Under the pieces are notes generated by a model that had not been told where the DNA came from, did not search any database, and saw only the letters and a program-made list of their open reading frames with translations. The translations under genes and the position numbers were made by a program. DNA of 58,383 nt, the filler included, from Porpidia crustulata (taxonomy: Eukaryota), in assembly GCA_964255105.1 (NCBI GenBank). It is 3 parts of 3 records of this genome, joined end to end, with 100 filler letters (N's around TTAATTAATTAA, not from the genome) between each part and the next. Parts side by side here need not be neighbours in the genome. Positions count along the whole stretch, not along the records: positions 39,050 to 58,383 come from CAXUWE010000144.1; 2 more parts are not named here. One strand, given 5' to 3'. Positions 23,038 to 58,383 of the stretch are shown piece by piece. The first letter of the stretch is position 1. Each line of letters starts with the position of its first letter.

Positions 23038-23139
23038 ACACACTCAATCATATCATGAATCGTGAATCCATCCCCAACATTCTTTAATAACCTCCTGATA
23101 CTATAATGACTCTCATGTGAGCTCCTAATACTGCTTTTC

Positions 23140-29261: not shown

Positions 29262-29449
29262 TGTGAATACAGAGAGGTAGTAAACGTTACGCGACTATAC
29301 AAGACTCCACGGCTCAATACGAGAGTGTTTTTCGAAAGTTATCTAGAACAAAACGAAAAGGATGTTCCGTTACTGGATATCAGCGCGGTCTTGTTGTGAT
29401 AGCAATGAAAGGGGTGCTCTAGGTTCACCGGGGTAAGCCAACTGTTGTG

Positions 29450-38554: not shown

Positions 38555-38949
38555 TCAAGTACTTAGGTAGTTTGAAGGAGCGAAGCCTGGTGTGTTATTT
38601 GACTTCAAGATGAGCCACCAGCCTGTAAGGTATCATTAGTATGTGATGTTCATTTATGTTTTATTGCAACTCACCATCTCCTCGATCATAAGCGAAGCGT
38701 ACCATTTCTCCCTGGTCTAGACTGGCCTCTGTTGTATCCTTTGCCTGATATGAAAACAAGGTGCGATGAGTGGGTTGTGCGATTGAGGGCGTTGGTGTTG
38801 CTGAAGTCGACGGTTGTGTCTGGGCCGCAGTCTGTTGGGTAGGGAGTATTGGCTGCTGGGTCGGAAGTCCAGGCTGTTGCATAGGAAGGATAGGCTGCTG
38901 GGTTGGAAGTGCGGGCTGCTGGGTTGGAAGTGCAGGCTGTTGATTGGAA
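38555..38949 (-). CDS. C-terminal SH3-domain protein with QQPxLPT repeats (5' part lost in gap)
   Basis: HRTLFSYQAKDTTEASLDQGEMVRFAYDRGDG / intron / WWLILKSNNTPGFAPSNYLST* fits the SH3 consensus (Y.Y, WW, G.P.NY). Confidence 0.75.
38830..38949 (-). repeat. 21-bp coding tandem repeat (QQPxLPT)n running into the gap
   Basis: Repeated GGCTGCTGGGTTGGAAG-like units on the + strand. Confidence 0.8.
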
Positions 38950-39049
38950 NNNNNNNNNNNNNNNNNNNNNNNNNNNNNNNNNNNNNNNNNNNNTTAATTA
39001 ATTAANNNNNNNNNNNNNNNNNNNNNNNNNNNNNNNNNNNNNNNNNNNN
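38950..39049. other. Artificial contig linker (44 N + TTAATTAATTAA + 44 N)
   Basis: Same structure as 19480-19579. Confidence 0.97.
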
Positions 39050-39848
39050 GGGTTAGAGGGTTGTGGGGTTGGGAGGTGTGGAGTGTACTTGCAAATAATC
39101 AGGGTGGTCGTCGCCGATGCAGCTTTCGTTCACGGGGACGTGATCGAGGGACCGCCATTCGAAGTCGATGTGTTGTGTGGATACGTCGACGACCTGAAAT
39201 AGAGCTTCTTTGATGGGTCGGCCATATTGGCTTGAATTGGTACTGAACGACGGTGCATGGTTGATACTGCCCGCTTGAATGATTTTCCTGCCGTTATCAA
39301 AGATCTCGAAATCATGAGGGTCCAGATGTGTTTGGTTCTCCAAACTCGCAAACGTCTCTACTACATCGTATTTCTCATCCAGAATCACATTTGTACAGGC
39401 CTTCAGCTGATAATCTTCCGTCACCTTGGTGTACGCCAGATGCGTACGCCCTTGGTAATTGACAGGGCGGAGGTTTTGAGCACGCACAGGCTGCTCGGAT
39501 TCAGACTGCTCGTGGCCGTTCCAAATGAGATCCTGGTGGTGTGAGAATCTGGGTAGCAGATTTTACAGAAGAGCACTTACGCCACGAAGATTGTAGATGA
39601 AAGGACCATCTTGCTGCGAGAAATATGGCGTGAGGAATAACAAATCGCTGTCGTTTTCTTTCAATTCATTTACATGGACAGTCAAAGATGGAGCTTTTAT
39701 ATCTGGTCTCTGTTTATCTGTTTAGTCACCCAGCAATGCTCACACTTGGAAGAGCCTCTGTACATACTGAGAGATATCGAGATGACTGGACAGGCTGGAT
39801 TGTGAAGGAGTGTGTGAGGATATATAGACAGCATAGCGAAATGTGCAT
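39050..39848 (-). CDS. Secreted arylsulfotransferase (ASST)-like protein, N-terminal part; truncated by gap
   Basis: Exons RPDIKAP...LFLTPY..QDGPFIYNLRG / DLIWNG...VILDEKY...DPHDF...FQVVDVSTQHIDFEWRSLDHV..ES...DY match the fungal ASST-domain pattern. Probable start MHISLCCL at 39848. Confidence 0.75.
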
Positions 39849-40064
39849 ATCTTGAAGGCGAGGATACGACGTCCTCCCATGTACTTTGTATAAGGCTATG
39901 AAATCTTTATTTGGCACGAAGGTTGGGTCAATTGGATGAGACAATCTAGAAAAGTGAGGCTCATGTTTCCATTGCGAGCTAGCAGCATCTAGTACTATGG
40001 CTCTTTATATCGGTTCCATTGACCCAGTTATTTTAATTCTGGCAAAAGCATTTCCCTCTCTTTC

Positions 40065-41134
40065 ATGTCCAAGCAGCATTCATCCATCTTCGGACAATAC
40101 AATACAATGGGTCATCAACAATTTCCGGATTTACAGGTTTCCATAATTGACGAAGATCCTCATCTGCGCCAGCGTTCTGTGCCGATGAAGACACTCGTGT
40201 TGGGATATCCTCGTACAGGAACTTCATGTACTATATATACTGTCTCAAAGTCATCATCGAAACGTCGAGCTAATAAGGCCGTAGCAATGCAAATAGCATT
40301 AGAACAGCTGGGCTTTGGGCCATGCTATCACATGCGAACGGCCATGAACCAGTACCCACGCGATTGCGAGATGTGGCTAGAAGCTTTTCAAGCAAAGTAT
40401 GAAGGAAAAGGTGTCTTCGAGAAGCAGCAATGGGATCAATTGCTTGGATACTACAGTGTAAGTTATATGTCGCACGCGATGTTTGGGAAGAGGAAGTTCT
40501 GAGACCTCGAAAGTCCGTCTGCGACTTGCCAGCCATTGTTTTTGGTCCGGAGCTCATGGCCGCCTATCCAGATGCCAAAATCATTCTTACCAACCGAGAT
40601 GTCGACTCGTGGCACAAATCATGCTCCCAGACCCTTCTCCAAGCGAGATGGTACTGGCTCCACAATGTCCTGCAACACGTTGACTGGGTAACGGGCCTAG
40701 TCCACTCATTGCGGAAGAAGTACTGGCAGTGCCTCTTTCAGGACGACTTCGAAGCAAATGGGAAGACCGCCATGCGTGCTCATTACTTGTTGATTCGCAA
40801 CATCGCACAGGAAACCGGGCGCCAGGTATTAGAGTTTCAGCTTGGGGATGAATGGGATCCACTCTGTGAATTCCTCGAAGTGGACGTTCCATGTCATCCG
40901 TACCCAAGAGTCAATGAGGGCGGCAACTGGATTCTGAAAATGCATCAGCGCGCCCACCAAAGGGCTATAGCTGTCGTATCCAGGTTTTTCCGCTTCGCTC
41001 TGCCAATGACAGCGATCGGTTTGGCGGTGTGGTTTGCAATGGCGAGGCCACCGCTACTCTCAACCCACATTGGTCACAATCCTCTTCTCGGCCTTTCTTT
41101 TTCGAAGCTATCTGAGATTAGAATGGGGCATTGA
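40065..41134 (+). CDS. P-loop sulfotransferase-family protein (Sulfotransfer_4 type) with C-terminal TM helix
   Basis: VLGYPRTGTSS, ALEQLGFGPCYHM, DLPA..F..ELMAAYPDAKIILTNRD.DSW, WDPLCEFL, PYPRVN. Two introns; ATG 40107 is an alternative start. Confidence 0.85.
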
Positions 41135-41706
41135 CGGTACGACCAAGTTCATTTCTTCCAAGCTCATGCGTTGTTAGGAACTATAGATCCGTAAATGCAC
41201 CATGGGACGCACTGCTGTCGCATATGCGAGATCGAAGTTCAAGCAGACTAGAAGTAGGCCGATTTCTAGTGAGGAAGGACGCGCTACTGCAGCTTGCAGT
41301 TCAAATCTCTGCGCCCCGCATGAAACTCTCTTTTCTCCGCTCTCTCAAAGCGGAATTCCGCCAATGCCTACTAAATGCACCTAAACCGGAGATGCTCGTA
41401 TCAACACTGAAAAGCGAAGGTGAACGAATGATTCAGGACGTGGGTATCCGGTGCTTGCAAACCTCAACAATGTTATCATCTAGCCCAAAATTAACCCCTC
41501 TGACGGATGACTTGGACTGCTATGAACGCGCAAGTTTGGCAAGCCCGCAAAGTATGTTCTGCTTGCGATGTCGCTCAATCGGCCCAGCCTCTAGTGGCAG
41601 CCAGGCATACTTTCATGTGTTGGAGCTTTATCTGCCAGACCTGGTAGGTGTATGGGGATGATCCAATCAGTCTGTGTCTATAGATCGTTGCACACCTCGC
41701 CGTATC

Positions 41707-42865
41707 ATGGAGAATACCAAGTACAACGATTTGCGTATTGCAGAAGTACAAGTCCTTGACCTCAAAGCCCTTCGCAATGGCGACAACGTCGAAAGGAGAA
41801 GACTTTTTGACGCTTGCTGTAAAGATGGCTTCTTTTATCTTAACATGTCAGGCTCAGAGCCCAAAATACATACGGCCATTAGCAGCATCTACAAGCTCGA
41901 ACAGCAATTGTTCAGTTTGTCAGAAAATGAATTGATGTATTATGACATCGACAAGCTTTCCCATAAGAAGTTGAATGGGTTCGTAACTTCGCCATATCTC
42001 TGCACGAACAGAACGCTTGAGTGACAATCGACAGCTATAAACCATTGGGTCGAAATCATGGCGAGCTCACGGGCAGGAAAGACGGATTCCAGTCCTACGC
42101 GGTATAGACCTTCCAATCGGCCATCCGTAGCTCAAAGCACCTGTCAGCGGTAGCTGACTTTGTTTTTAAAAGGTACCTAAAGACGGTATCATGCGGCTGG
42201 GAGATCAGGCCAACTTCAAGCGTCCTCAGGTCATCGATGTCCATATGTCCTCTCTGCACACCCTTGCATCAGCAGTCTCAAAGGCAGCTTCAACAATCCT
42301 CTCGAGTCTCTCATCAAGCCTTAAGCTCCGACCAGAAGAAAGTCTCCAAAATATCCACAACACGCATCTGCCCTCCCCAGATCTTGTCCGCCTATTAAAA
42401 TACCATGATCAGCCGTTCTTCGAACGCGGTTCCTCGCACATAGCGCACACTGATATTGGCTCTCTGACATTCCTCTTCACCGAGCAATTCGGCTTGCAAA
42501 TCATAGGTACGGAGAGCGAAGAGTGGGAGTGGATGCAACCCCGAGAGGGATGCGCTATCGTAAACATTGGCGATTGCCTTAGCTTACTGACCAACAAAAC
42601 ATTTCGCTCATGTCAGCATCGCGTAAAACCATTACCGGGACAAGCAATGAAGGAACGGTATAGCTTTGCTTATTTCATGAGGCCTGACGAGAATGCCCTT
42701 ATGAGAGCGTTAAAAAGCCCGTTGATACCTGAGGTAGAAGACCAGGGCGAGGAGACCGTCACAAGTGGCGAGTGGTTGCAGCTGAAGTATACCATGTTGC
42801 GGCGGGATACTTGGAATAAGGAGAAAAGTTGGATGCTCAATGGAGTCGAGCGGAGCAAGTTGTGA
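41707..42865 (+). CDS. Fe(II)/2-oxoglutarate dioxygenase, IPNS/DIOX_N type
   Basis: LFDACCKDGFFYL, RLLKY, HTDIGSLTFLF (HxD), VNIGD, HRV and RYSFAYF (RxS). Two introns. Confidence 0.92.
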
Positions 42866-43261
42866 TAGATGCATAGACTCCAAGCCACTCGTCGACAACG
42901 TCCAAGCTTTGTGACATGCATGCTAAGTCAGTATCTTGATAAATCCTTGCATGAGATTTCCGTGGACGCTTCGAGTAAATAGGACAACAGAGGTGCTCAT
43001 GGAATTCCTGGTGTAACTCTGGTAGCTTAAGAAGATCATTTATAGCTTTATATGACATGACTTGGAGCACAGATGATTACGTACCTTGAATGGGTAGATC
43101 CGGACAAAATCCCGACTGCTGTGTGTGCCACTTCTAGTAAAATATCAATCTCAACTATTTCGACCAACCGCCGTATAAGTCAGCATCTTTCTTGAACACT
43201 GGGTCGGTCCACAGCTTTGAATCCTAATGTTACTTTGCAGACAAACTTTTGGATCAATAAA

Positions 43262-45477
43262 ATGCCGGACCAAGTCCCAAATGACGAGACACGACCGCTC
43301 TTATCTCCATATCTATCCCCAAGTATCTCGCAAACAAACGATGATGATGGAGAGCATACAGCGGCAATATCGTTTGGACTGACGAAGTTTATACTGGCAC
43401 TTATAGGTACGCAATCAACCGCCAAGGATATCTACAGCAGGATCTTGTTCCTACTGCGGCTGATTCCACTCAGGCGTTTTTCTGGCAAACGCAGATACCT
43501 CACTTGTCGTGGCCACATACCCATCAATTGCGTCCGAGTTTCGGGACTTGGGAAATGGGCCATGGTTGTTAACAATTTACACGCTTGGATACAGTGTCGC
43601 TCTGCCGGCTGTGAGTTGAATTTCTAGTATCTCCGTAGTTCCTCCACGACTGCCAGAGCTCGAATGCAGTCAAAACAAATCCTTCGTAATCCCAAGCATT
43701 TGAGCATTGATTGACTTTGTTCTCGCTAGTATGGAGCCATCAGCGATGTTTTCGGACGGAAGAAACCTCTTCTCGTCGCTTATGTTTTGTTTGGCATAGG
43801 ATGTATCGTCTCGTACGTTCAAATCAAAAGTCATCTTGGGCTCATGTTCTCGCATTCCCTTGGAGTCTTACAAAGATCAGAGCAACAGCATTTTCGTTGC
43901 AGCAAGTCATACTTGGCCGAATGGTATCCGGATTTGGTGGAGCCGGAATGACAGCAATGGTTTCTGTCATCATCACGGGTAGATATGTTAATTAGTACTC
44001 GAAACTTTTGTCGCATGACTAAGTTTCTTCAATCAGATTTAGCACCACTCTCAAAGGTTGCTTTACTAAGGAGCTACGTCAATGTGGCAGCAGTCGCAGG
44101 AAGGAGCGCAGGAGGGCCCATCGGTGGGCTTCTTCTTGACAGTATTGGCTGGCGATGGTATGGTACTGTATGCAATACTTTGAGGTAAAATCTGAATGAG
44201 AGTGCAGGTCATTTTTTGCTCAAGTGCCAATAGTGCTCGGATGTCTTGTTACGGCACTCTGGCAATCGTTACCAACTCCCACTCGAAATGGCCAGAAGCA
44301 ACGTCACCTGGATATATTGGGAATAATGGCCTTCGCATTGACAATGTTGTCCTTTTTACTGTTTGTCAATTTTGCAGGCAAAAAAGGAGGGGCCCCCAGT
44401 CCTGTCTTGATTCTGCTCGCATTGTCATTCGTCTTCTTTGCAATTGCCTTTTTGTTGATTGAGATTTACTTGGCTGCAAATCCGATGATCCCCTTTTCGA
44501 TGCTGAAGCAGGACAGGTTGGGATTCTATTTTGCTGTGCAGGTGTTGCTGCTTGTCGCACAATTTACTGTGAGTTTTCGTTCTCAAAGCGGTTCTTACTA
44601 ACGCACGGACAGATTGTTTCGAACGTGGCAACGTACTTTGCTCGTACGGAGAATGCCTCAAACTCGATTGCCGCACTCCATATCACGCCTGCTCCTGTGG
44701 GTAATGCCATTGGCGCTCTAGTTGCTGGCAAATTGATCAGCAGGTAAGTGTTGCATGATATATTGCTATTGAAATCTGACGTCGTTTGCACAGCACAAAG
44801 CGGTACAAAGTCATTTCAGTAGTAGCTGCGAGCTTGTGTATTGCAAGCTTCATTTTGGTAATGTTGAGGTGGCAGGGCCAAATCAATGTGTGGGAGTCTC
44901 TGTACATCTTCCCAGCAAGTCTAGGTATTGGTTTGCTGAATTCATCTCAATTCATCGGCTTGTCAGCCTCGGTTGAGAAAAGTCAATTAGCCACAACCAT
45001 CAGTATATTTTTCCTCAGTCAGCAGATTGGCATGATGATCGGGGCGAGTGCGTCTTCGGCTTTGCTTCGCAAGACTTTCCGAAATGCCTTACTAGACAAA
45101 TTGGGCAATGGTCGGGACAGCAGACAGGTAAGTATCCTGGGATCTCCTAATATCCTCTCTCCAAGATCACCAAGAGGATACCTATCCATAGTGTTCAGGC
45201 AGAACCACACAGAGTCAATCCAGTATCCGCGCTAATTCGACTTGGTACCAGGTTATCAAAGATATACTCAATGACAGCCACGCCGCGCTGCACTTGCCCA
45301 AAGCTTTGCAAGCAATCGCCCTATTGAGCTATGTCCGTGGCTTCCTCTTCGTATCAAGTGAGTGGTCAAACTCCTGCTCGTTGATGGATGTCTGACCCCT
45401 CCGCAGTACTCTCGGTCTGCAGCTCAAGCCTGACACTGCCCTTCTTGGTGTTTCTCCCAGAGAGGACTATTGAATAA
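43262..45477 (+). CDS. MFS drug/amino-acid transporter (Vba/DHA14-like), multi-exon
   Basis: VFLANADTSLVVATY, YGAISDVFGRKK, GRMVSGFGGAGM, GRSAGGPIGGLL..IGWRW.F, and many TM helices. Confidence 0.85.
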
Positions 45478-46704
45478 AAGCATCAACAACGGAGGGACGA
45501 TTCTTCCATGATAGCAAAAGTATCGACATTAGGAATAATGGTACCTTACGATACAATGTCATAAGTAGGTGGATGTTAAGCTGTTCATGAGATAGCTGGC
45601 CTACACCGCTGTTCTTGATATATCTATAGGCAATTCCTGACCAGCCGCAATATTATGTGCAGCTTGCTCCTTACAGTGTCGCTATGGTGTGCTTGTATTT
45701 CCTAGTAGACAACATCTGAGTGTTCAGATCTTGATGTAGTTCGGGCCTTCAAGGAATGTTTAAATTACTTCTGCCATCGTCTTGGGCGATCTTCTTCAGT
45801 ATCCGCCATCTTTTGCTTATCCATGGAATCGATCACAGAAAAAAGTAGTGAATTGCAGTTACGGTAAGCGCCGTAGACTTTGTAGCCTATGCGGAAGGTC
45901 TTTGAAAATTATAAGTCTCCGATTTACTTTCCTCCTCCAGCCTCCGGAATGACTGTACTAAGCCATGAGGGACCTTCAAGAACCTCTTACTACTATCGTC
46001 TCCATCTGTTTGATGCGGTTGAGCGTATGATGTGATGGCCTCCCAATTTCGGCTTGTACCCTGCCTTCGTGTTACAGTAACTAGTATGCCATTCGCCTGA
46101 TCTTGATAATAGGCTGGGGTGGCGGATAGATTTTACGGTTCGACTGGCGTAAGATCACCAAATACCAAAACGGACGATCCCGTCGAATGTCACGTGATTC
46201 ACTGTCAAAATTATTCCATCATTTGTCTCCTTACCAACATTGCATCTTATGCCCTACATAGTTCAAACGCTCTTGTCTTGAATCGTGTTCAGGCATAGCT
46301 ATCGCAACTGTCCGTGGCCCCTGTCATACGCGCCTGTCTCTGATGGCTTGGAGCTATCGTCTGACTTGGATCTAGGGTTCACAGTCTCCTCTGGTTGACA
46401 ATATCGTGTTTCTATGTGCTATACATCAATTCTATTTGCGCCGACGGGGAGAAATCATCTGTACCGCCTGTCGCCAGTATCTATCATATGTCTGAACAGA
46501 ATCGCTCTGTAATGACAACCCATCGCACAAGGAACTTGATACAATTGCAAGCTAGGATAACGAAGAGCGAGACCGCAAGTAGACTTCGAATGTCCTACTT
46601 GGGATCTGCATCCCGTCGCTATCAGACCGACCAGTCACGTCTCGAACAGCATTTTTGTTACCTACCAACATCCTTGAGCGCTCAATTCCATCCTATGCTT
46701 AGAG

Positions 46705-47874
46705 ATGTCTGCGTTACCGCGATGTGTTGCTCTAGCAGGTGCAGGTGACTTGGGCCGCTATGTCTGCGAAGAGCTGCTCAAATCTAGTCAATTTCGAGTT
46801 GTCATTTTGACGCGTGGAGTATGCGCCTCCACTTAAAACAGTATTCAGAGCTCATCAAGACTGACATAATATATTGAGCTGACTACCAGACCTGTCATAA
46901 ATGGGTCACAGATCTGCATATTCCCAGCCACAAAACCGACTATACTGTGTCTTCAATCCTCTCGATTCTAAACAATACCCGCGCCTCCACATTGATCTCC
47001 TTCATCAATGATCCTACGCCCAATTATGTTACTACTCACGCTGCCATCCTTGAAGCCTGCTGCCAATCGGCCACATGCAAGCGTCTCATACCATCTGAAT
47101 GGATCGGTGACTCAAAGACCTATCCGTTGAAGCCTGAGTACTACGCGACATCGCGGGAACCCTTTAGGCAAATGTTGAAAGAGCAAACGGAAGTTGAGTG
47201 GACGCTGTTTAATACTGGATGGCTGGCAGACTATTTTTTGCCGAGACGGAAGTCACACATGAAACCTGTACCTCTCGAGTTTCCCATGGACCCAAACGGC
47301 TGGCGGGCACATGTGAGAGGAACGGGACATGAGACACAAAGCTGGACGTGTGCCAGGGATGTAGGGCGGGCGGTGGTGGAGCTGCTCAAGGCTGATGAGT
47401 GGGTGAGTAAAAAAGATATTTCGTTGCGAGACCTCACATGCAAATGCTCCGCACTTTGGGAAAGACTTTCAACTAGCTCGGACTTATGCTGAAATGGCTA
47501 CTTAGGAGACGCATACATACGTGGCCGGTGAATGGAGCACATTCAACGAAGCTATCATGACAATGGAATCTTTCTATGGTACCTGAAGCCCCATCTTTGA
47601 TTCCCAATTCAACGCACCAGCTAACCTGAACCCCTGGCTAGGCCGCCAAGTGCCGCTTACCTACAAATCCCTTGAGGATATACAGGTGTCCTTTGCGAAA
47701 AGTGCAACCATGGAAGATAAAATGTTGGCGCAAATGGAGGAGGTAATAGCAATGGGATGTTTGGCCTGTCCGAAAGAGAAGACACTGCGACAGCGTGACA
47801 AGTATTTCAAGGGGCTACGATTTCTCGGCTTGAAGGATTTGCTGAAGTATGCCGAGGACGTAGAGTTTGTGTAG
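46705..47874 (+). CDS. NmrA / isoflavone-reductase-like NAD(P)-binding protein, multi-exon
   Basis: MSALPRCVALAGAGDLGRYVCEEL (Rossmann motif), KRLIPSEW, WTLFNTGWLADYF, TCARDVGRAV. Confidence 0.85.
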
Positions 47875-48104
47875 ATGGAGGAAAGGAACCAGAAAGATCC
47901 ACGTCTCCAATTTTGCAGGTCATTCAGTGTATAAAGAAGAATTATCAACCACTTTATCATCGGATAGAAATTACTATTCGTCCAAGCGGGCTTCTTCTGC
48001 TTGGTTTGAAGTCTATTAACTCGATTTCTTGAGTTTTTCAAGACAAAACCCTGGAATACGACCTCATCTGAATAACGCTAAAATCTACAGTACAATCCCC
48101 AATG

Positions 48105-49929
48105 TTACTCGGTATCTTCAGTTGCCGCGCTTGCGTAGCTCGGTTCTTCTATTTCATCCACTGACCAGCTCTTCAATGCAGCGACACCGATAACGCCTGC
48201 CACAAATAATGTGGCACATGTCCAAAATGGTATTCCAAGGGGAAAGTTTCCGTTGTTTAGCACAAGACTGAAGAGACCGGACCACAGCGGGGCACCTATC
48301 AGTGCAGCGATAATATTGATGAGACCTGTGCGCACGTAGAATTCCGAGACCTTTTCTCCTGGTGGTAGAGTCAATGTTCCGTACGCTGTCAAAGAATCGG
48401 CTAGGCCAATTCCACTTGTGTACACGCAGAGAAATAGGATGAAAAAAGCGGCTGGAGCTGAGAACCCAAGACCGATTACCCCTATCACGTTAGTCGCAAG
48501 AGATGCCTGCGTGATAAACAGGTCGATCTGTGGTGTGCTCATGCGGGGTTCCAGATACCGTTTGCGGAGCGTCGGTAAGGCGAAGAGTACTAGTGAGGAG
48601 ATCAACGCTTTCAGAGCGAGAGCGCGATTGACCGTTGCTAGCGGCCAATTTAGAACTAGGGATGTGTATTGGGGAAGAAGGACTTCGATTCGGACGGAAA
48701 GACCGTTGAGTAAGAAGACGATTAAGACGGTGAGGGTAGGGTTGGACATGCGAAAGAGGGTGACGACTGAGTAGTACGAAGCATACCATGAGCGCAGGAG
48801 AATACCGGCAAGAGAGTGCTGGAGACTTATTAGCTGCAACTGACGAGACAGGGGTGCTTCGAACATATCTTACATTGGGACTGGCGCGACGGGGGAGTGT
48901 CTGCCTCCCAGAAGCTGGATCTACTGACTCAGGATCGTCAGAGATGAGGAGGATGGGCAATGAGTCTTCTATAGCCTTGGTGTCACGCCCGAACTCAACC
49001 GGGATCGTCGCGGCAACGCAGGTCGTTAGAGCGTAGCAAAGGATGGAAAGACCGTTCAAAAGGTAGACATGATTGCTGAGCAGCAAAGAGCCAATGATAG
49101 ATCCTGCAACGCTGGCTAAGAGATAGCATCCACTGATGTAATTATATGCAATCGTTCTGGTGAAAACGATTAGGTACTCGGCCGAGATGAAATCTCAGAA
49201 AAATTTATAGCAATGACTTACAATTTCTCAGGTGGTGAGATTAGAGCAATACATGTCACAACGATTGTAATTCGTGTGATTTCGCCACCCCCAATCAAAT
49301 CGAAAATGAACGATGAGAGAATGGCATTGGTGGTCCATGTTCGATGGAGCGAGACTATGCTTGATAAGCATGATAGTTTTTATGCCAATGGTAAAAGAAG
49401 GGATTATATAACGCACAGTTAAAGATAGAGTATAAAACCGCCAAAGCAGAACAGCATAAGTTTATGAGTATGAGTCGGCGTAGGCCTAGAAATGGTAAGA
49501 GTTCCTTGTAAGTTGCAAGCACAAGGAGCGCTGTCATTGCACGCCGCAATTATTAGCATATCTATTTGTTGATCTCAAACTTCTTCTCAAGCGAGCGTAA
49601 TATGACTGTGTATCAGACCAGATAAAGATGAAATGACAGAGTGACCTACCTGGTAGATTGGACAGAAATGAATCGAGACCATCAGTGACGGAGAGTCGAG
49701 ATTGGACAACATCGACTTTACACAGCGCTTCTTTCACACCATTTTGTGGGTCAATTTTTGTAGGATCGACGGTCATGTAGAAGGCGAGACACTGCGATTG
49801 TTGAAAAAGATATACCCGTGAGCTTTTGTGTACAACGGCGGCGAGATTGGCGAGAGTAAGGACAAAGCCTAACAGGAAAACCTGCCCATTCGTTGACCGT
49901 TTGCGAAAGAGGACGCTTTGAAAAGACAT
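48105..49929 (-). CDS. MFS transporter, multi-exon
   Basis: Hydrophobic exons with CKVDVVQS, FDLIGGG and IAALIGAPLW. Confidence 0.8.
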
Positions 49930-50354
49930 GCTGTTTGATTTTACTTCGTCAAAATATATATGGGCGCGAAAATGTAGTCGAGAACTGAAGAGATAGAGAG
50001 TAGTAGAGAGCGAGACGGAAGTGCGAGAGCCTACATACTGAACTCAGCTCGCACACGCCGTAGTGATGGTGGTGTTGATGGATAGGATTGTGACCATCCC
50101 CTTATGCGAAGACATTGATCTCATGATGGACCGTGTGGTGTGGACGAATGTGGACGAACGTTACAGATATCTCGGAGGGGAGAGACCAGCTACCACGCTA
50201 AAGCGAATAGGGAATAGAGTAGACAGGCCGGCACACCTGCCAGTCGACCTACAACCTCAAAATGCTATTCATCTACTAACGGTCTACCAGTATTGTACCT
50301 GATCAACTTCCTAGGCGCCCCTTTATCCCCCCTCCCATCTGGTGCCCCGTCTCA

Positions 50355-51446
50355 TCATTCTATACTACTCTCGCTCACCCGGAATCTTTTTACTGGATCA
50401 GTCTCGTCGCAGTGTCCTAAGAATGGGTTATCCAGAACATATCCCGCCTGCTTCTGAGCTGCAACAGACCATTCCTGAACCTCCTCTTTAGACCACCACA
50501 GATGTTGATTCTCCTAAAGACTATCAGTATGTGCTCCACTCAAAGTTGATGGCGAGACTGGTTTTGAAGCTGGATGTAAAGGTGGTAAGACGGAGGGTAA
50601 ATACATACTTCTGGTCGCATCCACGAGCGACAAAAGAAAAATCCATGCATGGGTCTGCTTTGTAATGTTCTATTTGCAGCGCCAGCATGCACCGTTGAGC
50701 CAAGAAAACAGAGCGCTTCCCCGAGGTCCATTACTGCAGATACCGTCTCGTCTGACTTTGGGCGCCTCGAATTATCCCACAGATGGGAGCCTGGGATAAA
50801 CTGGGCAAAATCAACTCAGCAATACACAGGCATGCGAAGGAGTAGGAGTCTCCCACCAGAGTAGCCCCGTTATCGACATTCACCTTAACACCAGGAACCA
50901 AAAGTCCAAGGCTAAAATCAGAACCCAAACGATATTTCTGTTGTCCTCGGACTTCATGTGTTTGCTGCCAGATAAAGTCATCCCGGTGTAGACTCTGTGC
51001 TTGGACGCCAGGGCCAATATCCAAAGTCGCTGCCACGGACAGGATAGGGTCGGTGGTAATTATTGTAGCACCACTGTCATTGTAAGGTATGGACTCCGTT
51101 CGCAAGAAATGGTTGAGGATCTTAAGAAAAGCAGGCTGCTGCAGCCAGACCTCACGTGCCGTCCTGCTACGCCCGAACAAGCGGTAACATCGTATCGTTT
51201 CTCGAGGAAGAGAGTGTGATGCGCGCTAACGGGTTTTGTCAGTCTTACTGAAAAATGACCAATCACACGACAGCCAAGGTAGCAGAATCATACATCTTCG
51301 ATCTGGGCTTGGATGTAGGGCGCGGCTTCGGCGTTGACCTTGTCGACGTCAGCAATGCTCGAAAAGCCTGTCAAGATAACAGCGCCATCTTCTTCAATGC
51401 TCTGTATGGCCGTGCGCGTGTCGTGGAGAGGTACTCGGCGAGCCAT
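50355..51446 (-). CDS. Phytanoyl-CoA dioxygenase (PhyH)-family Fe/2OG dioxygenase, multi-exon
   Basis: IEEDGAVILTGF, LDIGPGVQAQSLHRDD, NGAT..IPGSHLWD, FLGSTVHAGAAN, RPEENQHL. Confidence 0.9.
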
Positions 51447-51728
51447 ACTATATCCGCCCACAGCAAGGTGATACTAGATAAAAAGGAAGCTTAATTAGAA
51501 TGGATCACTGCCAGTATTATAGAGCCGTTTAGTAGGTAGGGGTACCCCGCTCGAAAGGTAGTGGCTACAACAATCAAGACGATTGGTTCATATCACTGCC
51601 CTGTGGTCCCTCAAGTCAGTGCCTTGGAAAGCGTGGCTTGAATCAAGACCAGGTATTGATATCCATATACGTGAGAGATCTAGGACTTGAGCGTCGCTCT
51701 CTGTGATATATCTATATTGTAACCATAT

Positions 51729-52451
51729 TTACAGCTTCCGAGAAAGAAATCTGTCCCGGTATATAAGATCAGGATCCAGATTAGGAGTGGCGGGAATACG
51801 ATTGGGGACTTTCGTCACCCACATCTGAGCTTCTGTCTCCTTCGCCTCCACCTCTGGCGCGGCACATTCGATGAAAGATAGGATTGAAATCCGAGGATTA
51901 TAGCAATCCTCCAGGTAGCCTTTCCACGCTACATCGTCAAACACCATTGTTCCATGAACTTTGAGCATCCGCCAGCAGACTACGGCGTCATGTAAGACAT
52001 CGACGGCCACATGAGAAGCATCGATGTAGATGAAGTCGAATACGGTCGCTTCGCGTCGCAGCTCTAGTAACGCTTCGTCGCTCCTTGCTTTCATCACGCG
52101 CAATTTGTTTACATGCTCGCATTTCGAGGTGTTTGACTGAAATCGGCTTTCGAGCGAAGTAATGTCATATTGATGCACTTGATCTGGGTCCTGATGCTCC
52201 ATCCCACCCTCGAAGGTATCGATAGCTGTCATGCGAGATTCGGGATGACTCATGAGGTTGTCAAGTAACCAAGTCGTGGAGGCGCCTTCGAAAGAACCAA
52301 CTTCTAGAATGTTTAATTTCTTGCCACGAAATGGAGTAGTGAGTTGCTCCCATTCTGGGCGAACATCTTCGTCGAACCATGAGCGCTGGAACGTAAATCT
52401 GCCACGGTTAAGGTCATTTTGTGGCCAATCTGCCTTGGGTTTGGAATTCAT
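51729..52451 (-). CDS. Class I SAM-dependent methyltransferase (Methyltransf_24-like), intronless
   Basis: ILEVGSFEGAST, IDTF, FDFIYIDASH, DAVVCWRMLKVHGTMVFDD. Start at MNSKPK (52451) preferred over 52556. Confidence 0.88.
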   Translation of the reverse strand: MNSKPKADWPQNDLNRGRFTFQRSWFDEDVRPEWEQLTTPFRGKKLNILEVGSFEGASTTWLLDNLMSHPESRMTAIDTFEGGMEHQDPDQVHQYDITSLESRFQSNTSKCEHVNKLRVMKARSDEALLELRREATVFDFIYIDASHVAVDVLHDAVVCWRMLKVHGTMVFDDVAWKGYLEDCYNPRISILSFIECAAPEVEAKETEAQMWVTKVPNRIPATPNLDPDLIYRDRFLSRKL

Positions 52452-52884
52452 CTTGGATTTTACTACTGAAGTACAATGCACAGCGACGACTTTAACGATG
52501 GCAGTTCTACTTTCTAGAAATGGCACGTTCAATAAATATTGCAGCAAGCGACGCATATTGAGGACTTTGGTCCTGCATTAGCGTTCTGATCTCATGCATC
52601 TCATGCATAGACTAAAATAGGCTGTGGAACTGGCAGCCGTCTCTCATCTGACTGGAGGTCTCGTGGGCTTTGATGATTCCTTTACCCGGGGGAGCTCGTT
52701 AGTAAATTCTATTGGTTTCAATGTTGAGATTCTAGTTTGAGGTCTCCGACCTTGGTGCTTCCAAGCTTTCTATACAAGATCTAACAACCAGAGAGAAAGG
52801 TCATAGAACGACTCTCGATCTGCTACGATCGACACTTCAACCAAGTACTGAGGCTGGTGCAGAATCTTCATACCACCACCAAGG

Positions 52885-54965
52885 ATGATTGAGATACGTC
52901 GAGGGCCGTACACAATCGAACAGTCTCCTGCAATTCCGATACCATCAGAGATTAATCCTAGACGAATCAAGACCTCGATTGTCGTAGCTTGGGCTTCCTG
53001 GATACTGTACACGTCCCTTCAATTTAGGTACGTGAGCCTCTTACAAAAAGAAACAACAGACATATTGTGGCAACTATGGGTAGCTGTGCTTGCGGAATTT
53101 TTTTTAACCTTTCAAACTGCTGTTACGTCTTTCAATATCATTCTTGCCCTTTTCAGTGTGAACGATACTACTCCTCGGCCCTCGCTTCGCTTGACTGGCA
53201 ACACTGCTCCCTCTGTAGACGTTCTAGTTACGTGCTGTGGTGAGCCCCTAGATATCATTGTAAACACCGTTGCCGCAGCTGCTGCACAGGACTATCCTTC
53301 GAAGCAGCTACGTATTTTCCTACTTGATGACGGCCACGATGAAAGGCTTCGACAAGCTATCAATGTTCTCAATGGTCGTTTGGGTCTCCACCGGAAAACT
53401 ACCATTATTTATTTCTCTCGGAAGACCCAATTGGCTATTAAGTCATATTTCAAGGCCGGGAACCTTAGTGCTGGAATAGAGGAGAGTGAGTGCTTAGGAA
53501 GCTCGGAACTTCTTGCTGGACTCGACGCAGATATGATTCCAGAGGGGGATTGGTTAAGGCGGGTGGTACCACACCTGCTTTTGAACGACAAAACGGCCAT
53601 TGCATGCTCTCCGCAGGTAAAGAAGAAAGTCTAGAAAATTCGAACATTGGCTTACGGAGGCTTAAGAGCTATTATAATGTTCCAGCGAACGATCCCCTAG
53701 GCCAACAAGCGGAGTTTGAGATGTATTTCACCGTCCAGGAAGCCCTCAATGATCGTCTCGGTGCTTCGATGTGCACAGGCACTGGCTATGTCGTTCGAAG
53801 GAAAGCTCTCACTGATATTGGAGGCTGGCCCCAGGCCGAAACCGGGGAAGATTTCATGTGCTCTGCCCTACTGGGTAACGCAGGCTGGGAGATTGCATTC
53901 GTCCGAGGAAACCTCCAGTCTGGACTTGCTCCTGGAAATCTTAGAGGGGTAATGAAGCAGAGAATGCGTTGGGTAGGTTAATTTCCGTTCTTGTATCTTG
54001 CCTTATATCAAGTTACTAATGCCTACGAGATCGATGCCTGCATAGAGGTGTGCCAATTCTTTGGATACTACCTACCGGGATCGGCGAGTACCTCCCAGAT
54101 GACAATGTCTCAAAGAGCGGTCAATCTGCTGTACGCGCTACGAGACTACTCGCCAGTGACAACCAGTCTAACTTTGATAACTCTACCCCTGGCTATTTTC
54201 CCCTGGCACACTGAAGGGCTTGCAAGGGCGTTATCTAAGCATCAGAGCCACCTGTTCTGGATCCGATCAGCCTTCGTGACAACACTCTTTGCTCAGAAGA
54301 TCAATACCTATGTTATGTACAAACACGTTGGACTCCTAAGAATGGCTAATCTTCAAAGTCTTGAAATATGGAGTGCACCCTGTAAGCTAGGTTCTCAAGT
54401 CTCGTTGCTATTTAATACAATAACATGCAAGGTTAATCGGTGATGCTATTCCAATAAAATTTCTAACAAGTAGTGTGCTCCAGACACGGCCTATCGTTGC
54501 CTTGTATCATTCCTCCCAGCATCCATGCGAATCTCGAGCTTCGCGGTTTGCGGCGCCATCATCTCACCCGCCAATGAACGCTCTCGACTCAATCGCAAGT
54601 CCCTTCCAACTCGTCTCTCCAGTCCCGACATGATATTGTATACCCTGTACGCAATATACGCCTTATCGCCGTTGATCTTCTGCCTCAAGGCCTACTTGAA
54701 CGACGAGGATGTCCCACAGCTATTTTCCCCCTTCACAGGGCCGGTTATCATGTTACTGAATTGCGTTTGGAAGGTTCTCGTGCCGGTAAGATATATGATC
54801 TGGCCACCTACAGTTCCAGAATGGGAGAAGCTGGTCAAAATGGACGGGATGGGGGTGAAGAGACCCAGAAAGGATTGGGAGAAGAATGAGCAAGGTCATG
54901 GAATCTGGTGGGTTTCGTTGGGTGTTTGCGAGCTATGCATGGTTTGGCTGTGCATTAGCTATTGA
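52885..54965 (+). CDS. Membrane GT2 glycosyltransferase (cellulose-synthase-like), 4 exons
   Basis: VDVLVTCCGE, LDDG, KAGNL, LDADMIP, PQ, CTGTG, GEDF and QRMRW (D,D,D,QxxRW), with N- and C-terminal TM helices. Confidence 0.9.
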
Positions 54966-55049
54966 GAGTTTCCGCGGTCTGTGGAACGAATGCACTGATA
55001 GATAGCGGATTCTAGACATGATTCATGATTCATGATTCTCTTCCAACTT

Positions 55050-57800
55050 TCTGTAACGTAGACGGTATCGTCACGTCGTCGGTCAGTCTGAGAAATGAGA
55101 CAACTGCTCGCTTCTGAGATTTACGATTCATACAGCTTCTACTCATCAGGATCGTTTACTACCTCTGTTCTTTATTCGCTATAGGTTACAGTACGATAAT
55201 AACCCGCTTGCGCTTTCTCAACGTCTTCACTAAGGTATTTATGCAGCTTACAATATCTTGCTCCATGTCTAGTCTTGATAAGCCTCGATTGACGCGCTCA
55301 GGTATAGACTATGACAAAATCTTCCATTTACTGTTTTCGTGTCGTCTGTAGTACTTCTCTCGTTCTTGTTACTATTTCTCGTTCTCATTAATAGAAAAAG
55401 TCCTTCACGAGCAAGAGTGACGCGATGAATGAATCAGTGATGATGAGTGATGCCGAGCATGACAGAGTCGGTAGTGAAAACTCGATCATTAATGGTATGC
55501 GTCTAATTAATTGTAGAAATGAAAAGCCATTAAACCGAATGAATGCAGGCAGGAATGAATTTGTTTCTATACAAAGATTTAATAAACATCAGTAAATGAT
55601 GTGACTTGTTGAACAGGCAGGGTGACTGTCGTAGTGTTGCTACTGAATTACGTACAGAACTAGAAGGTTGAGTGGCCAGGTGGTCACATAAGACAGGGGT
55701 AGGGCAAAGCCCTATCACTAGATCCAATCCATCCATTCACACCGACTAGATAATGAGGAGGTTAGGCCTTCGTCCTACCGCACTTTCCAACATGACTCGA
55801 TTCAAGTCTCTGCGACCATACAATAAACCAATATGCCATAAACATGAACTTGAAGCGTGCGATCAGCATCGCAGTAACCAGTAACCAGTAACCCAGTCCG
55901 TCAGCGAATTGATATACGGAATGGGCAGCAGCCCTGCCGATAGTCGCATAACCCAGCTGCTTTTGGGGTGCCTTTCTAGATTATCACGTTGTCACACAAC
56001 CCTATAGATCTCTGGCTATCCATCGAGTAGCCTACGTTAAACAGTATGGGGCACGAGTTTGCTAGCTTCGCCTTATTGTGTCTTCGCCGAACATCCAACA
56101 GGTGCAGGTTCGTCCTGACGTGAATTTTTAGTAGACAGATTCATTTGGAACCTTCTGGGAGACCCTAGGATACTCTGTTCATATGCTTAATGGGTTTAGT
56201 ACAGACAACGTCGTGGAATAGAGTAATAACGATCGGTCATAATGTTCGACCGTTAAGTGATGCTAGCGAATTCAATCAAAGACGTTTCGGATCCCCGCGG
56301 GTCTAAGAACAACCTCAGCGGCCGAGTCTAATAACAGTACTCCCACGTCCATCAAAACCACCACGGTCAAGCCCATCACTAGCTTCGCTTTCTTCACTCC
56401 TCCAAGTTGCATTGTCGTGACAGCCAACGTTGTAGAATATCACGCTCTTTACACTCGAGGAGACAGCGGCATCTTTGCGCTCGGAGACAGCGGAGTAAGA
56501 TATTAAGACGGCGATAAGACACGGCCATTCGGAGTGCCGCAGCACTGATACTTCTCTCATTTAGCTCGTGCGGGTTGGTTTGGATAAGGCAATTCAAGTA
56601 ATCAAGCTCTTGCGGCTGTTGGGGTTGTGTCTGGTCGCGCTACCCTGCGCCCCAATTTATGGACAGTACTACCGAGCCTGTTCTCCGTGCTGATGCGTCG
56701 TTGTTGCCAAGGATAGTATCTGTCTCAATATTGCATCGATGAAGAAATCCTTCTTGTCCGCATCTTAGAGCTTCGTAAATTAGTTCATTATTAAAACTAA
56801 GCGTAAGATTGAATGGTTGAGACAATCATCTACGCAGGATTTTGAAATTCTGAAGCTACGCATATTGCGTGTTGACAATGAGCCAAACTCCCAACGCTCT
56901 CTGAATACAGTCAGATGGTTCTAAGAAGAAGTACGGATATATTCTTTGTTCTAACAAAATATGCTTTTGTAGATCTGATATCGTGCTACTCTGGCACGTA
57001 GGGATGACCTTGAGTCCTTGGTCGTACCAGGCAACGATATCGACGGATACGTCGCCTGATTGATAGATAACAAGCATATGCTTAGTCTCAACACTCAACC
57101 CACGCCTTTCCGAGGAAAACCAAGGAAGGGGCACCGAGTAAATTCCGTGGACATTTTATTACCTCTTTTTCATATATCCTCATCCCTCCCCTTCGCACAT
57201 CCATATGGTGATGTATCCACTATCCTGAATAAGGGAGCATTGGGTGGATGTGATCGTGCATCAATCGTGCTTCTTATTTTCTTTCTATTTGTGAAACCCG
57301 AATGAGCCAAGATGGAGAGATAGCGATCATATCCTCGACCGTGCAGCTCGCTGTGACCACGAAGTGTATCCGTCACGCCCATGAGTATTGGCGGTGGGAG
57401 GATCTGCATGGAAGATGGTGGGTTGGGGCATCATTGGGTTTCTCGGGGGGGTATGACGATGGTGATCGCGGACGGATCCATCATCCCTTTATTACTTCTT
57501 CCTAGTTGTGAAGCCGCGAATTTGTGATGATAGAAATTGCGGTCCCAGTATCACTATCTTCCTCGAACGTGATCTACTCATCATCCCCAATTGAGCCAAG
57601 GTGCGATCTCGAGTCGCTATCTTCCTTGAATGTGTGGCTCGCTGTGGCCGTGAAGATGAGGGATGTCGGAAGGCATGGTAGACTTGTGAAATTCTCTTGG
57701 GAATTCCATGAATATCTGCCCCAAAATTCCCGCGCAGCTCGTAGCGGTATAGTATATAGCGTGGTGGTAGCGGCCTGCCATCGTTACGTCTGATGATTAT
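55050..57800 (-). pseudogene. Degenerate, stop-riddled coding-like remnant(s), unidentified
   Basis: Protein-like patches on the minus strand are broken by many stops (e.g. ELDYLNCLIQTNPHELNERSISAAALRM; LRGHSELHGRGYDRYLSILAHSG, with a diverged second copy near 57590-57660). Confidence 0.3.
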
Positions 57801-58383
57801 TTGGTATATGTTGATGTTGGTTGGATGTGGGTACGCGCGTGGCCTGGGCCTCGGCTATCGTTGTTAAGAAGATATTAGGTGTTGGGAAGCCACGAGGTCA
57901 TCTGAAAAAAGGTTCTAAAGGTAGTCAGACGGTGCATACAAGGCGTGTGAGGATGAAGGTACCCTCCTGTGAAAGGACCCAGAGTAGTCCTAAACGATTT
58001 GCATCCCGTTCCCTAAGACAAGGTGTTATTTTTTCTAGGTACGAAAAAGCCTAAAACCGTACAGATCACGGTTACGGGGGGAAAAAGATCGGAGCTGCAG
58101 TCAGCGTAGAGATTGTGGAGAGCCTTCGGTTTTGCGAGAGCCAAAGATCCAAGAGAAAGCTTCCAGACTTTAGGTAGGTAGCTCTTGAACCCTGATAGAT
58201 TCATCCATTTGTTGTGAGGTGGAAGGATGAATCCTATCGAGGTTTAGTCCCAAGACAAGGAGGATTTCTTCACTGAATTACATAGCTCATGCTTCTGTGA
58301 TTACATAAATCAATTTCATGACTCTGCGGTCGAGCGGGCTAGTTTACTGCCGAGCTGCAACATTTGTAAGCCCGCGCTTATTA

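Follow-up and report, generated by a model that had tools for sequence, protein, structure and literature searches.

The nine genes on the last contig of the window (the whole analysed stretch of 58,383 nucleotides, filler included, from Porpidia crustulata, assembly GCA_964255105.1) are best described as an accessory gene neighbourhood that is lineage-specific and belongs to a lichen-type ascomycete. We assign a probability of about 0.5 to this reading, in which two separately conserved modules with proposed sulfate-relay and glycan roles are present and do not make up one fixed cluster. A sequence-only reading had proposed a single backbone-less cluster. Its view of accessory genes without a backbone, arranged beyond a chance row, was retained, given the collinearity with the related metagenome contig L007 and the recurrence of the sulfotransferase-ASST and methyltransferase-GT2 pairs. 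The notion of one fixed unit was not, since synteny with L007 ends after the first MFS transporter.

The following features were located, with the main evidence in brackets:

38950..39049, no strand: artificial contig joint, N44 + TTAATTAATTAA + N44 (linker read in the sequence)
39050..39848, minus strand: ASST-type (PAPS-independent) aryl-sulfate sulfotransferase, 5' fragment (weak PF14269 match, collinearity with L007)
40107..41134, plus strand: Sulfotransfer_4 (PAPS-type) sulfotransferase (ST), 3 exons, 304 aa, intact (Pfam, E 1.9e-39)
41707..42865, plus strand: 2OG/Fe(II) oxygenase, 3 exons, 343 aa (DIOX_N and 2OG-FeII_Oxy, Pfam, E 2.2e-15)
43262..45530, plus strand: MFS transporter 1, many short exons, 3' end approximate (weak MFS_1 match, collinearity with L007)
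46705..47874, plus strand: NmrA-like atypical short-chain reductase, about 310 aa, 4 exons, provisional splice sites (Rossmann-type N-terminus, ESM-Atlas)
48105..49929, minus strand: MFS transporter 2 (ESM-Atlas features, identity to the Gallowayella weberi protein P0015)
50355..51446, minus strand: PhyH-family Fe(II)/2OG dioxygenase, 4 exons, 290 aa (Pfam PhyH, E 1.8e-9)
51729..52451, minus strand: class I, cation-dependent-type O-methyltransferase, single exon, 240 aa (Methyltransf_24, E 2.8e-18; Methyltransf_3)
52885..54965, plus strand: BcsA/Tft1-like processive GT2 synthase, 4 exons, 623 aa (GT2 families, Pfam, E 6.8e-10)
55606..55792, no strand: short high-copy element in the gene-poor right flank (word depth)

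All nine genes named by the earlier reading proved real, and their family assignments were upheld by Pfam (26 stop-to-stop ORF pieces of 39050-54965), the L007 orthologue, ESM-Atlas features or homologue identity. The two divergent pairs are arranged as described, with starts facing each other at 39848 (minus) and 40107 (plus) for ASST and ST, and at 52451 (minus) and 52885 (plus) for methyltransferase and GT2. The hand-built models of the ST, 2OG, PhyH and GT2 genes are open and intact, and that of the NmrA-like gene plausibly is as well. The observation that no backbone gene is visible was also confirmed, as none of the contig's scanned ORFs, and none of 38 ORFs from the rest of the window, showed a PKS, NRPS, terpene or DMATS domain. 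No transcription factor gene was seen in the ORFs scanned, and promoter words were not in common beyond the level of shuffles.

The contig ends within the ASST gene and retains only its 5' part, and the Arylsulfotran_2 match of this fragment (18.7 bits) lies under the 27-bit cut-off. The assignment is secured by the collinear L007 orthologue (52-78% identical), whose C-terminal ORF matches PF14269 with an E-value of 5e-21. In the fragment, the start, a hydrophobic N-terminus and an 'LDPHDF' motif could be read. The structures 9kf6/9kf4 are the only PDB sequence matches of the fungal ASST, with E 3.6e-35 against 9kf6 for the L007 protein and E 4.4e-56 against 9kf6/9kf4, nearly full length and with three His motifs aligned, for that of the distant contig L003. 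The ST keeps both PAPS-binding motifs; across 15 homologues, neither the 'PRTGTS' loop nor the R..S 3'-phosphate motif varies. The PDB matches of its profile include PAPS-type enzymes and comprise SgdX2 as the best match, a Schistosoma sulfotransferase and 9kf1. Since we take SgdX2 not to be a plain sulfotransferase, the sulfation activity of this family is only putative. For MFS transporter 1, weak MFS_1 matches on three pieces of 43196-45235 are complemented by ten collinear tblastx blocks with L007, which are 46-95% identical.

The ASST, ST, 2OG oxygenase and MFS transporter 1 genes form module A, which is conserved as a unit in L007, the closest relative available. Positions 39089-45525 of the window are collinear with L007 8510-14947 in the order ASST-ST-2OG-MFS, and the 2OG and ST proteins are 75% and 72% identical to their orthologues. 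Past the first MFS gene, homologues of the methyltransferase, GT2, PhyH, NmrA-like and MFS2 genes are absent from L007 within about 5.6 kb of MFS1 and 10 kb of ST. Instead, this 5.6 kb flank holds an SDR and a formyl-transferase-like ORF; the 7.4 kb past ASST carry genes for a DHBP synthase, a transaldolase, an MFS protein and a 2OG enzyme. The core of the module extends further: ST, ASST and MFS genes lie within 7 kb on the distant, eukaryote-like contigs L003 and L004, and ST occurs together with ASST on a third distant contig, L059. The copies on these three contigs are 28-36% (ST) and 34-36% (ASST) identical to those of the window and L007, and the identity between L003 and L004 is about 51%. 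The pair is in tandem in L003 and L004 and divergent in the window and L007. Overall, ASST was found near ST in 4 of 80 ST-family loci; 39 of the 80 are flanked by 4 kb or more on one or both sides.

Module A most likely acts as a two-step sulfate relay, as suggested by the closest solved ASST relative, which acts on caprazamycin-type liponucleosides. The PAPS-type ST would sulfate a small phenol inside the cell, MFS transporter 1 would export the product, and the ASST, the N-terminus of which is hydrophobic like that of a secreted protein, would pass the sulfate to the final acceptor without PAPS. The 2OG oxygenase may provide the hydroxyl group used in the relay, or trim it. A comparable system is the two-step sulfation of caprazamycins and liposidomycins in Streptomyces, which involves the type III PKS Cpz6, the PAPS-dependent Cpz8 and the ASST Cpz4 (Tang et al. 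2013, as cited in the available text of PMC12142624 and PMC11677658). Both systems link a PAPS-type sulfotransferase gene with an ASST-type gene, and the available part of a preprint describes 9KF6, one of the only two solved relatives of the fungal enzyme, as a Streptomyces ASST active on these liponucleosides; 9kf1, matched by the ST profile, is an adjacent entry code. However, the window genes are eukaryotic and contain introns, they are accompanied by genes for a 2OG oxygenase and an MFS pump, and neither a nearby type III PKS nor nucleoside-antibiotic genes are present. Near none of the ST-ASST pairs was a type III PKS or another possible origin of a phenol carrier detected, and the literature searched contained no account of such a pair in a fungus.

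Module B consists of the GT2 gene and the divergent methyltransferase gene, accompanied here by the PhyH, NmrA-like and MFS transporter 2 genes. The GT2 protein has all catalytic motifs (DDG, DAD, GED, QRMRW), its splice sites match annotated homologues, and its clade profile matches BcsA in the PDB with an E-value of 6.4e-28. In a tree of 41 rows, it falls into a 14-row clade with a support of 100, in which all 12 named members are lichen-forming fungi, apart from a 16-row clade holding the A. fumigatus protein P0061, presumably Tft1. So far, the clade is known mainly from lichen fungi. The methyltransferase has 191 homologues, with an identity of at least 58% in all 120 among the matches listed. 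Its AF2 model (pLDDT 82) matched catechol/CCoA-type O-methyltransferases and the sugar O-methyltransferase MycE in Foldseek at a TM-score of about 0.55, and in this predicted fold a phenol and a sugar substrate are indistinguishable.

ESM-Atlas features identified the reductase as NmrA (0.94, 179 shared) and transporter 2 as MFS (0.98, 215 shared), with no Pfam match for the reductase or the transporter pieces even at E<=5 and no PDB sequence match for the reductase. Transporter 2 also shares 53-75% identity with the N-terminal part, which bears PF07690, of P0015, a gene model in which MFS2 and GT2 are fused. The PhyH dioxygenase has both HxD and the distal His, and its best PDB sequence matches are SwnH1 (E 1.4e-6, 164 aa), SwnH2 and NvfE. 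The accessory genes of the swainsonine (SWN) cluster include the SwnH1/H2 dioxygenases, the SwnN reductase and the SwnT transporter, and the window resembles this set in having a PhyH dioxygenase gene beside those for an NmrA-like reductase and an MFS protein. The SWN likeness holds at the family level only (E 1.4e-6, 164 aa), and the window has neither a SwnK-type hybrid synthase nor an aminotransferase.

Most likely, module B produces a beta-linked glycan or oligosaccharide and decorates it. A backbone synthase would not be needed in either module because the scaffold would be a sugar polymer in B or a phenol made elsewhere in A. Like Tft1/AfTFT1 and BcsA, the window GT2 combines several hydrophobic segments with the motifs D, DxD, (T/G)ED and QxxRW. 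Unlike these, it has a conserved methyltransferase neighbour; it also lacks a PilZ domain, belongs to a clade separate from Tft1, is shorter than the A. fumigatus protein (623 vs 738 aa) and is only about 38% identical to P0061 in exon 1. The detoxification pair of Hypocreales uses a soluble GT1 UDP-glucosyltransferase, unlike the membrane GT2 of the processive synthase type found here. In both cases, a gene for a sugar transferase is paired with one for an O-methyltransferase, and no backbone gene belongs to the setting. This glucosyltransferase-methyltransferase pair is mentioned in PMC7690957. AfTFT1 of Aspergillus fumigatus is a fungal mixed-linkage glucan (MLG) synthase according to the available parts of bioRxiv 10.64898/2026.09.17.752320 and PMC4344333.

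The methyltransferase and GT2 genes have neighbouring locus tags in four other lichen fungi, out of seven species in which both are tagged, namely Psora crenata (Q9163_001479/1480), Xylographa opegraphella (MMC26_000717/718), Letrouitia subvulpina (Q9167_001823/1824) and Polycauliona sp. 2 (Q9169_006821/6822). Among the matches listed, they are on separate contigs in Toensbergia, G. weberi and Teloschistes exilis, as are ST and GT2 in Psora testacea and Toensbergia leucococca. Such cases are soft negatives because further GT2 paralogues exist, as shown by Polycauliona.

A single nine-gene cluster, in which the GT2 would provide the scaffold, the methyltransferase, dioxygenases, reductase and sulfotransferases would decorate one sulfated, methylated and hydroxylated glycan or glycoside and the MFS proteins would export it, appears unlikely. 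The nine genes do share one contig with no unrelated gene in between, MFS2 adjoins GT2 in G. weberi, and ST lies three genes from GT2 in L. subvulpina (tags 1827 and 1824) and five from the methyltransferase in Xylographa trunciseda (MMC11_007439 and 7444). One ENA pair of ST and methyltransferase also has a 16,400-b longest contig in common. Modules A and B are near each other in the window and probably in three other assemblies. In L007, however, only ASST-ST-2OG-MFS stay together; its ST and methyltransferase have only a 209,905-b longest contig in common and are not adjacent. Among the matches listed, only four non-self STs match a methyltransferase homologue in longest contig (78616, 39334, 16400, 209905), at least the last of which is a non-adjacent case. 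L003 and L004 have ST-ASST-MFS without GT2 or methyltransferase, and several Teloschistales have the methyltransferase-GT2 pair with no ST orthologue of theirs among the 120 matches listed. Any link between the modules is putative. The opposite view, an accessory region with few genes where a cell-wall synthase gene and genes of the detoxification type (sulfotransferases, oxygenases, pumps) stand side by side by chance and the adjacencies are leftovers of common descent, is likewise improbable. All families in the row are common in fungal xenobiotic metabolism, which counts for this view, as do the differing content among relatives and the lack of a transcription factor, backbone and common promoter word; shared ancestry among Lecanoromycetes could also explain part of the synteny. 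Nevertheless, the ST-ASST linkage is kept at 32-36% identity and in a changed gene order, and the methyltransferase-GT2 adjacency spans taxa that presumably belong to different orders.

Another possibility, which we consider very unlikely, is that the row is a fragment of a canonical cluster with a PKS, NRPS or terpene synthase just past either contig end. The contig stops inside the ASST gene at 39050 and, after 3.4 kb without genes, at 58383; a distant ST paralogue (L033) adjoins an NRPS-like A-T-C ORF and a P450, and the PhyH enzyme resembles secondary-metabolism dioxygenases. Against this, no backbone gene is present in the L007 flanks (7.4 kb past ASST, 5.6 kb past MFS1), and none was seen in L003 or L004. 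The suspicion that a backbone might lie beyond a gap at 39049 does not apply as posed, since this gap is an artificial joint between contigs and not a sequencing gap within a locus. An identical linker occurs at 19480-19579, the window's ST protein is encoded on a 19,334-b contig corresponding to 39050-58383, and an independent contig set (run X1) also breaks at 39056, with a single 12,747-b contig covering 39056-51802 and linking modules A and B. As the DNA to the left belongs to another contig, the left neighbours are uninformative about the cluster.

The right flank had been described as degenerate DNA, which was not borne out. None of the 13 ORFs scanned in it has a Pfam match, and searches there for RNA families, tRNAs and internal repeats found none. 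The short high-copy element at 55606-55792 has a summed word depth of 144 in its bin and of up to 192-211 in short records at this place, compared with about 10-12 elsewhere, and six loose ends lie at its borders.

The nine genes between 39050 and 54965 are best read as a two-module accessory neighbourhood, combining a probable sulfate relay with a GT2-methyltransferase glycan unit of a clade found mainly in lichen fungi. Module A comprises an ASST, a Sulfotransfer_4 enzyme (ST), a 2OG oxygenase (2OG) and an MFS transporter (MFS1). Module B comprises an O-methyltransferase (MT) and a BcsA-like GT2, here joined by a PhyH dioxygenase, an NmrA-like reductase and a second transporter (MFS2).

The contig structure defines which genes can be regarded as neighbours. 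The N blocks at 19480-19579 and 38950-39049 are identical (N44, TTAATTAATTAA, N44), and both are a six-frame-stop linker joining contigs and no gap inside a locus. Since the contig carrying the ST ORF, with a length of 19,334 b, corresponds exactly to 39050-58383, the nine-gene region lies on a separate contig. At least three contigs are joined in the window, and neighbourhoods across the linkers are therefore no evidence of linkage. The genes detected to the left of 39050, on the other contigs (rhomboid, Mob1, Leo1, ribosomal L1, Arf, a BTB protein, DUF7492 and two dynamin-like GTPases; Pfam, 38 ORFs), are not shown to be neighbours of the nine genes. In the DNA run X1, which provides an independent contig set, one contig of 12,747 b spans 39056-51802 and others cover 51777-55634 and 55764-58383. 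The nine genes are thus contiguous in X1 too, with the left break at the same place. The gap at 39049 described in the sequence-only reading is the N44 linker between contigs, and a real gap is absent.

The DNA of the window is intron-bearing and eukaryotic, and the gene models were built by hand and verified against homologues. A Pfam search on 26 ORF pieces of the contig matched Sulfotransfer_4, DIOX_N/2OG-FeII_Oxy, a weak MFS_1, PhyH, Methyltransf_24 and GT2, with no match for the "reductase" or MFS2 pieces. The assignment as an NmrA-like reductase is based on a Rossmann-type N-terminus and the ESM-Atlas feature NmrA (0.94), and a PDB sequence search with its exon gave no match. MFS2 was assigned by the ESM-Atlas feature MFS (0.98) and by being 53-75% identical to that half of a fused Gallowayella weberi gene model which bears PF07690. 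Open reading frames were obtained for ST (304 aa, three exons, intact), 2OG (343 aa), PhyH (290 aa, with the HxD...H residues), GT2 (623 aa, with splice sites matching annotated homologues) and, provisionally, the NmrA-like reductase (~310 aa), and the MT is encoded by one 240-aa ORF. Both oxygenases keep the iron-binding residues: PhyH contains HRD, with the distal H in 'VHAG', and 2OG contains HTD, with the distal H in 'QHRV', and additionally RxS. From its start at 39848 (-), the ASST gene runs off the contig at 39050, so that the call of this gene in the sequence-only reading stands for the family and applies to a 5' fragment only. The fragment scores 18.7 bits against PF14269, under the 27-bit threshold, and the family assignment comes from the collinear orthologue in the metagenome locus L007, which matches PF14269 with an E-value of 5e-21. 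The two divergent pairs are real; 258 b separate the starts of ASST and ST, and 433 b those of MT and GT2. The nine genes observed are thus confirmed, with three corrections: to the gap, to the ASST, which is truncated, and to the description of the right flank.

Module A is supported by synteny. L007 (20.5 kb) is the closest ST locus in the metagenome scan with an ST 72% identical to that of the window, the 79 other loci being at most 38% identical. By tblastx, 39089-45525 is collinear with L007 8510-14947, covering ASST, ST, 2OG and MFS1 in the same order and orientation, with no match past MFS1. L007 continues beyond ASST with DHBP synthase, transaldolase, MFS and 2OG genes and beyond MFS1 with an SDR and a formyl-transferase-like ORF, and no backbone is present. 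The second 2OG and second MFS genes (L007 311-3291) lie ~5 kb beyond ASST, with the genes for transaldolase and DHBP synthase in between. Of the 80 ST-family loci retrieved, 39 have at least 4 kb on one side, and ASST adjoins ST in four of the 80 (L007, L003, L004 and L059). The copies in L003, L004 and L059 are 28-36% (ST) and 34-36% (ASST) identical to those of the window and L007; between L003 and L004, the identity is ~51%. The arrangement is a tandem ST, ASST and MFS in L003 and L004 and a divergent ASST/ST pair in the window. Because of the low identities (28-36%) and the changed gene order, the ST-ASST linkage is considered old and to have outlasted rearrangement.

The ST matches PF17784 with an E-value of 1.9e-39, its 5'-PSB and 3'-PB motifs are invariant in a 15-row alignment, and its profile matches PAPS-type enzymes in the PDB, including 9kf1, whose entry code neighbours 9kf4/9kf6. 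These last two are the only relatives with a solved structure that the fungal ASST has; the L007 copy matches with an E-value of 3.6e-35, and the L003 copy, along almost the entire chain, with 4.4e-56. Three His motifs of the L003 ASST are aligned with 9kf6; the window fragment contains the first one only, as the contig ends before the rest. The ASST N-terminus is hydrophobic in both the window and L007. A preprint describes 9KF6 as an ASST from Streptomyces that acts on caprazamycin-type liponucleosides. In the caprazamycin pathway, the PAPS-dependent Cpz8 is described as sulfating a phenolic carrier, from which the ASST Cpz4 passes the sulfate on (Tang et al. 2013 as cited in PMC12142624, PMC11677658).

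From the ST-ASST linkage, the similarity to 9kf6/9kf4, the Cpz8/Cpz4 pathway, the PAPS motifs and the hydrophobic ASST N-terminus, we infer a relay from ST through MFS1 to ASST. Here, ST would charge a phenol in a PAPS-dependent reaction, MFS1 would export the sulfated phenol, and ASST would hand the sulfate to an acceptor. Judged by sequence, module A is probably such a sulfate relay. A type III PKS as a source of the phenol carrier was not found by Pfam on the contig, L007, L003 or L004. The literature searched contained no account of a fungal ST-ASST pair, and characterised fungal phenol sulfotransferases such as FgSULT1 are described as Sulfotransfer_1 enzymes (PMC7690957). A secreted arylsulfotransferase orthogroup reported as enriched in chlorolichens (10.64898/2026.09.03.749242) may be connected to the ASST of the window. 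If true, the relay would bring to fungi a mechanism so far described in a single antibiotic pathway of Streptomyces and provide a function for the widespread, so far uncharacterised fungal ASST-like and Sulfotransfer_4 families.

A more far-reaching reading, which we consider unlikely, is that lichen fungi sulfate an extracellular product by an aryl-sulfate shuttle, in which the Sulfotransfer_4 enzyme would charge a phenol in the cytosol, MFS1 would export it, and the sulfate would then be handed over by a secreted ASST, either at the surface of the hyphae or where fungus and alga meet. A shuttle is proposed because sulfation outside the cell would have no access to PAPS, and the sulfated product might be the methylated beta-glycan of the neighbouring GT2. 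If true, it would mark the first case of PAPS-independent sulfation in fungi and open to genetics a matrix component found so far mainly in lichen fungi. The possibility that lichens are already on record for sulfated polysaccharides was considered and set aside, as the reference given for them in a review (PMC11625862) concerns the algal partner and not the fungus.

The GT2 of module B has the features of processive BcsA/CesA-type enzymes (D, DxD, (T/G)ED, QxxRW and membrane segments), read in the model as DDG, DAD, GED and QRMRW with four segments above a Kyte-Doolittle value of 1.6. The profile of its clade matches BcsA best in the PDB (6.4e-28), followed by plant CesA and CslF6. For this reason, membership in the GT1-MT detoxification pair of Hypocreales, whose glycosyltransferase we take to be a soluble GT1 UDP-glucosyltransferase, was rejected. 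In a single quick FastTree of 41 rows, the GT2 falls into a 14-row clade with a support of 100, whose 12 named members are all lichen-forming fungi. A Cercospora protein forms the sister of this clade, which is apart from a 16-row clade containing an A. fumigatus protein taken as Tft1, reported as an MLG synthase (AfTFT1; 10.64898/2026.09.17.752320, PMC4344333); the window GT2 lies outside the Tft1 clade. More distant relatives with 37-42% identity occur in Aspergillus, Nemania and one Xylariomycetidae species, and "lichen-specific" therefore applies to the close GT2 clade as sampled only. GT2 exon 1 is 45-63% identical to sequences from Gallowayella, Xanthomendoza, Teloschistes, Endocarpon, Letrouitia, Psora, Toensbergia, Xylographa and Pseudevernia. 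Within the lichen-fungus clade, the GT2s of Endocarpon and Xylographa, genera of different classes, group together with a support of 100, perhaps because of an ancient paralogy or a gene transfer among lichen fungi. The best matches of ST, GT2 and MT are lichen-forming fungi or metagenome proteins, with identities of up to 72% for ST and up to 79% for MT, pointing to a lichen-type ascomycete as the source.

The MT is strongly conserved, with the best 120 of 191 homologues all at least 58% identical. An AF2 model of the MT (pLDDT 82) resembles cation-dependent O-methyltransferases of the catechol type (COMT/CCoAOMT) and of the sugar type (MycE) with a TM of ~0.55, and the only PDB sequence match, 3dul, is marginal (E 0.0065). 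Residues D144, D172 and D173 are invariant and, by inference only, may act as an acidic metal triad. According to locus tags and accessions, MT and GT2 lie side by side in Psora crenata, Xylographa opegraphella, Letrouitia subvulpina and Polycauliona sp. 2, and the fused G. weberi gene model joins the MFS2 orthologue to GT2. In the three other species with tags for both genes, Toensbergia, G. weberi and T. exilis, the listed MT and GT2 are on different contigs; these are soft negatives, because in Polycauliona a second, unlisted GT2 paralogue was the true neighbour of the MT. No account of this GT2-MT pair was found in the literature searched. A GT2 gene reported as induced in resynthesised Usnea (PMC7526373) may be connected to that of the window. 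If module B makes a lichen-fungus glycan, it would provide a testable gene for the thallus extracellular matrix, the genetics of which are largely unknown.

Whether the nine genes form one cluster depends on the linkage of the modules. The modules are linked in the window itself. In L. subvulpina, MT (1823), GT2 (1824) and ST (1827) have sequential accessions, in X. trunciseda ST is 7439 and MT 7444, and in one ENA pair ST and MT have a common longest contig of 16,400 b. The L007 ST is 100% identical to a homologue (P0122) whose organism has its MT on a contig of matching length (209,905 b). Within 10 kb on each side of ST in L007, no MT, GT2, PhyH, NmrA-like or MFS2 homologue was found, and ST and GT2 are on separate contigs in Psora testacea and Toensbergia. 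We conclude that modules A and B associate repeatedly, but not obligatorily. The single nine-gene cluster proposed from sequence alone thus holds for the conserved tailoring and transporter sets of each module, but not for the nine as one fixed unit, as the synteny with L007 ends after MFS1 and L003 and L004 contain neither GT2 nor MT.

The earlier statement that no backbone gene is visible was borne out, as Pfam detected no core synthase domain (PKS, NRPS, terpene cyclase or DMATS) on the contig (26 + 15 ORF pieces), in the remaining window (38 ORFs) or in the syntenic L007 (20 ORFs). Compared to a canonical fungal cluster, a core synthase is missing, and co-localised tailoring enzymes with a transporter recur across species for each module, not for all nine genes. 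Backbone-based cluster finders would overlook both modules alike. Membership in the SWN cluster was rejected, as the likeness is at family level only and neither a SwnK-type hybrid synthase nor an aminotransferase is present. Pfam found no transcription-factor domain on the contig, and a k-mer search of seven upstream regions revealed no shared word beyond shuffles, the best 7-mer occurring in 5/7 and being reached by 10/200 shuffles. In another metagenome locus (L033, 996-15857), a distant Sulfotransfer_4 paralogue with 32% identity lies directly upstream of a 1309-aa NRPS-like ORF (A-T-C domains), near a P450 and a 2OG oxygenase 40% identical to that of the window. The Sulfotransfer_4 family can therefore occupy backbone-containing clusters too.

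The right flank had been described as degenerate DNA. Its 3.4 kb contain no gene that could be recognised, and scans of the contig or its right flank for Rfam families (at gathering score), tRNAs and internal repeats were all without a match, but the flank does carry one short element:

55606-55792, short high-copy element; X1 summed word depth of 144 in the bin and short records of 192-211 vs ~10-12 around (~15-20x), with several loose ends at the borders

This element is probably a dispersed repeat and accounts for the X1 contig break there. On the middle contig, two dynamin-family GTPase genes (Dynamin_N and Dynamin_M) at 27079-29294 (-) and 32041-34086 (-) are ~3 kb apart. A Pro/Gln-rich ORF at 38661-38949 (-) with a repeat unit of ~8 residues runs into the contig linker and is no continuation of the ASST gene across it. 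The ORF at 23110-23766 (+) contains collagen triple-helix repeats (PF01391, E 1e-17), which are unusual in a fungus and may be a low-complexity match.
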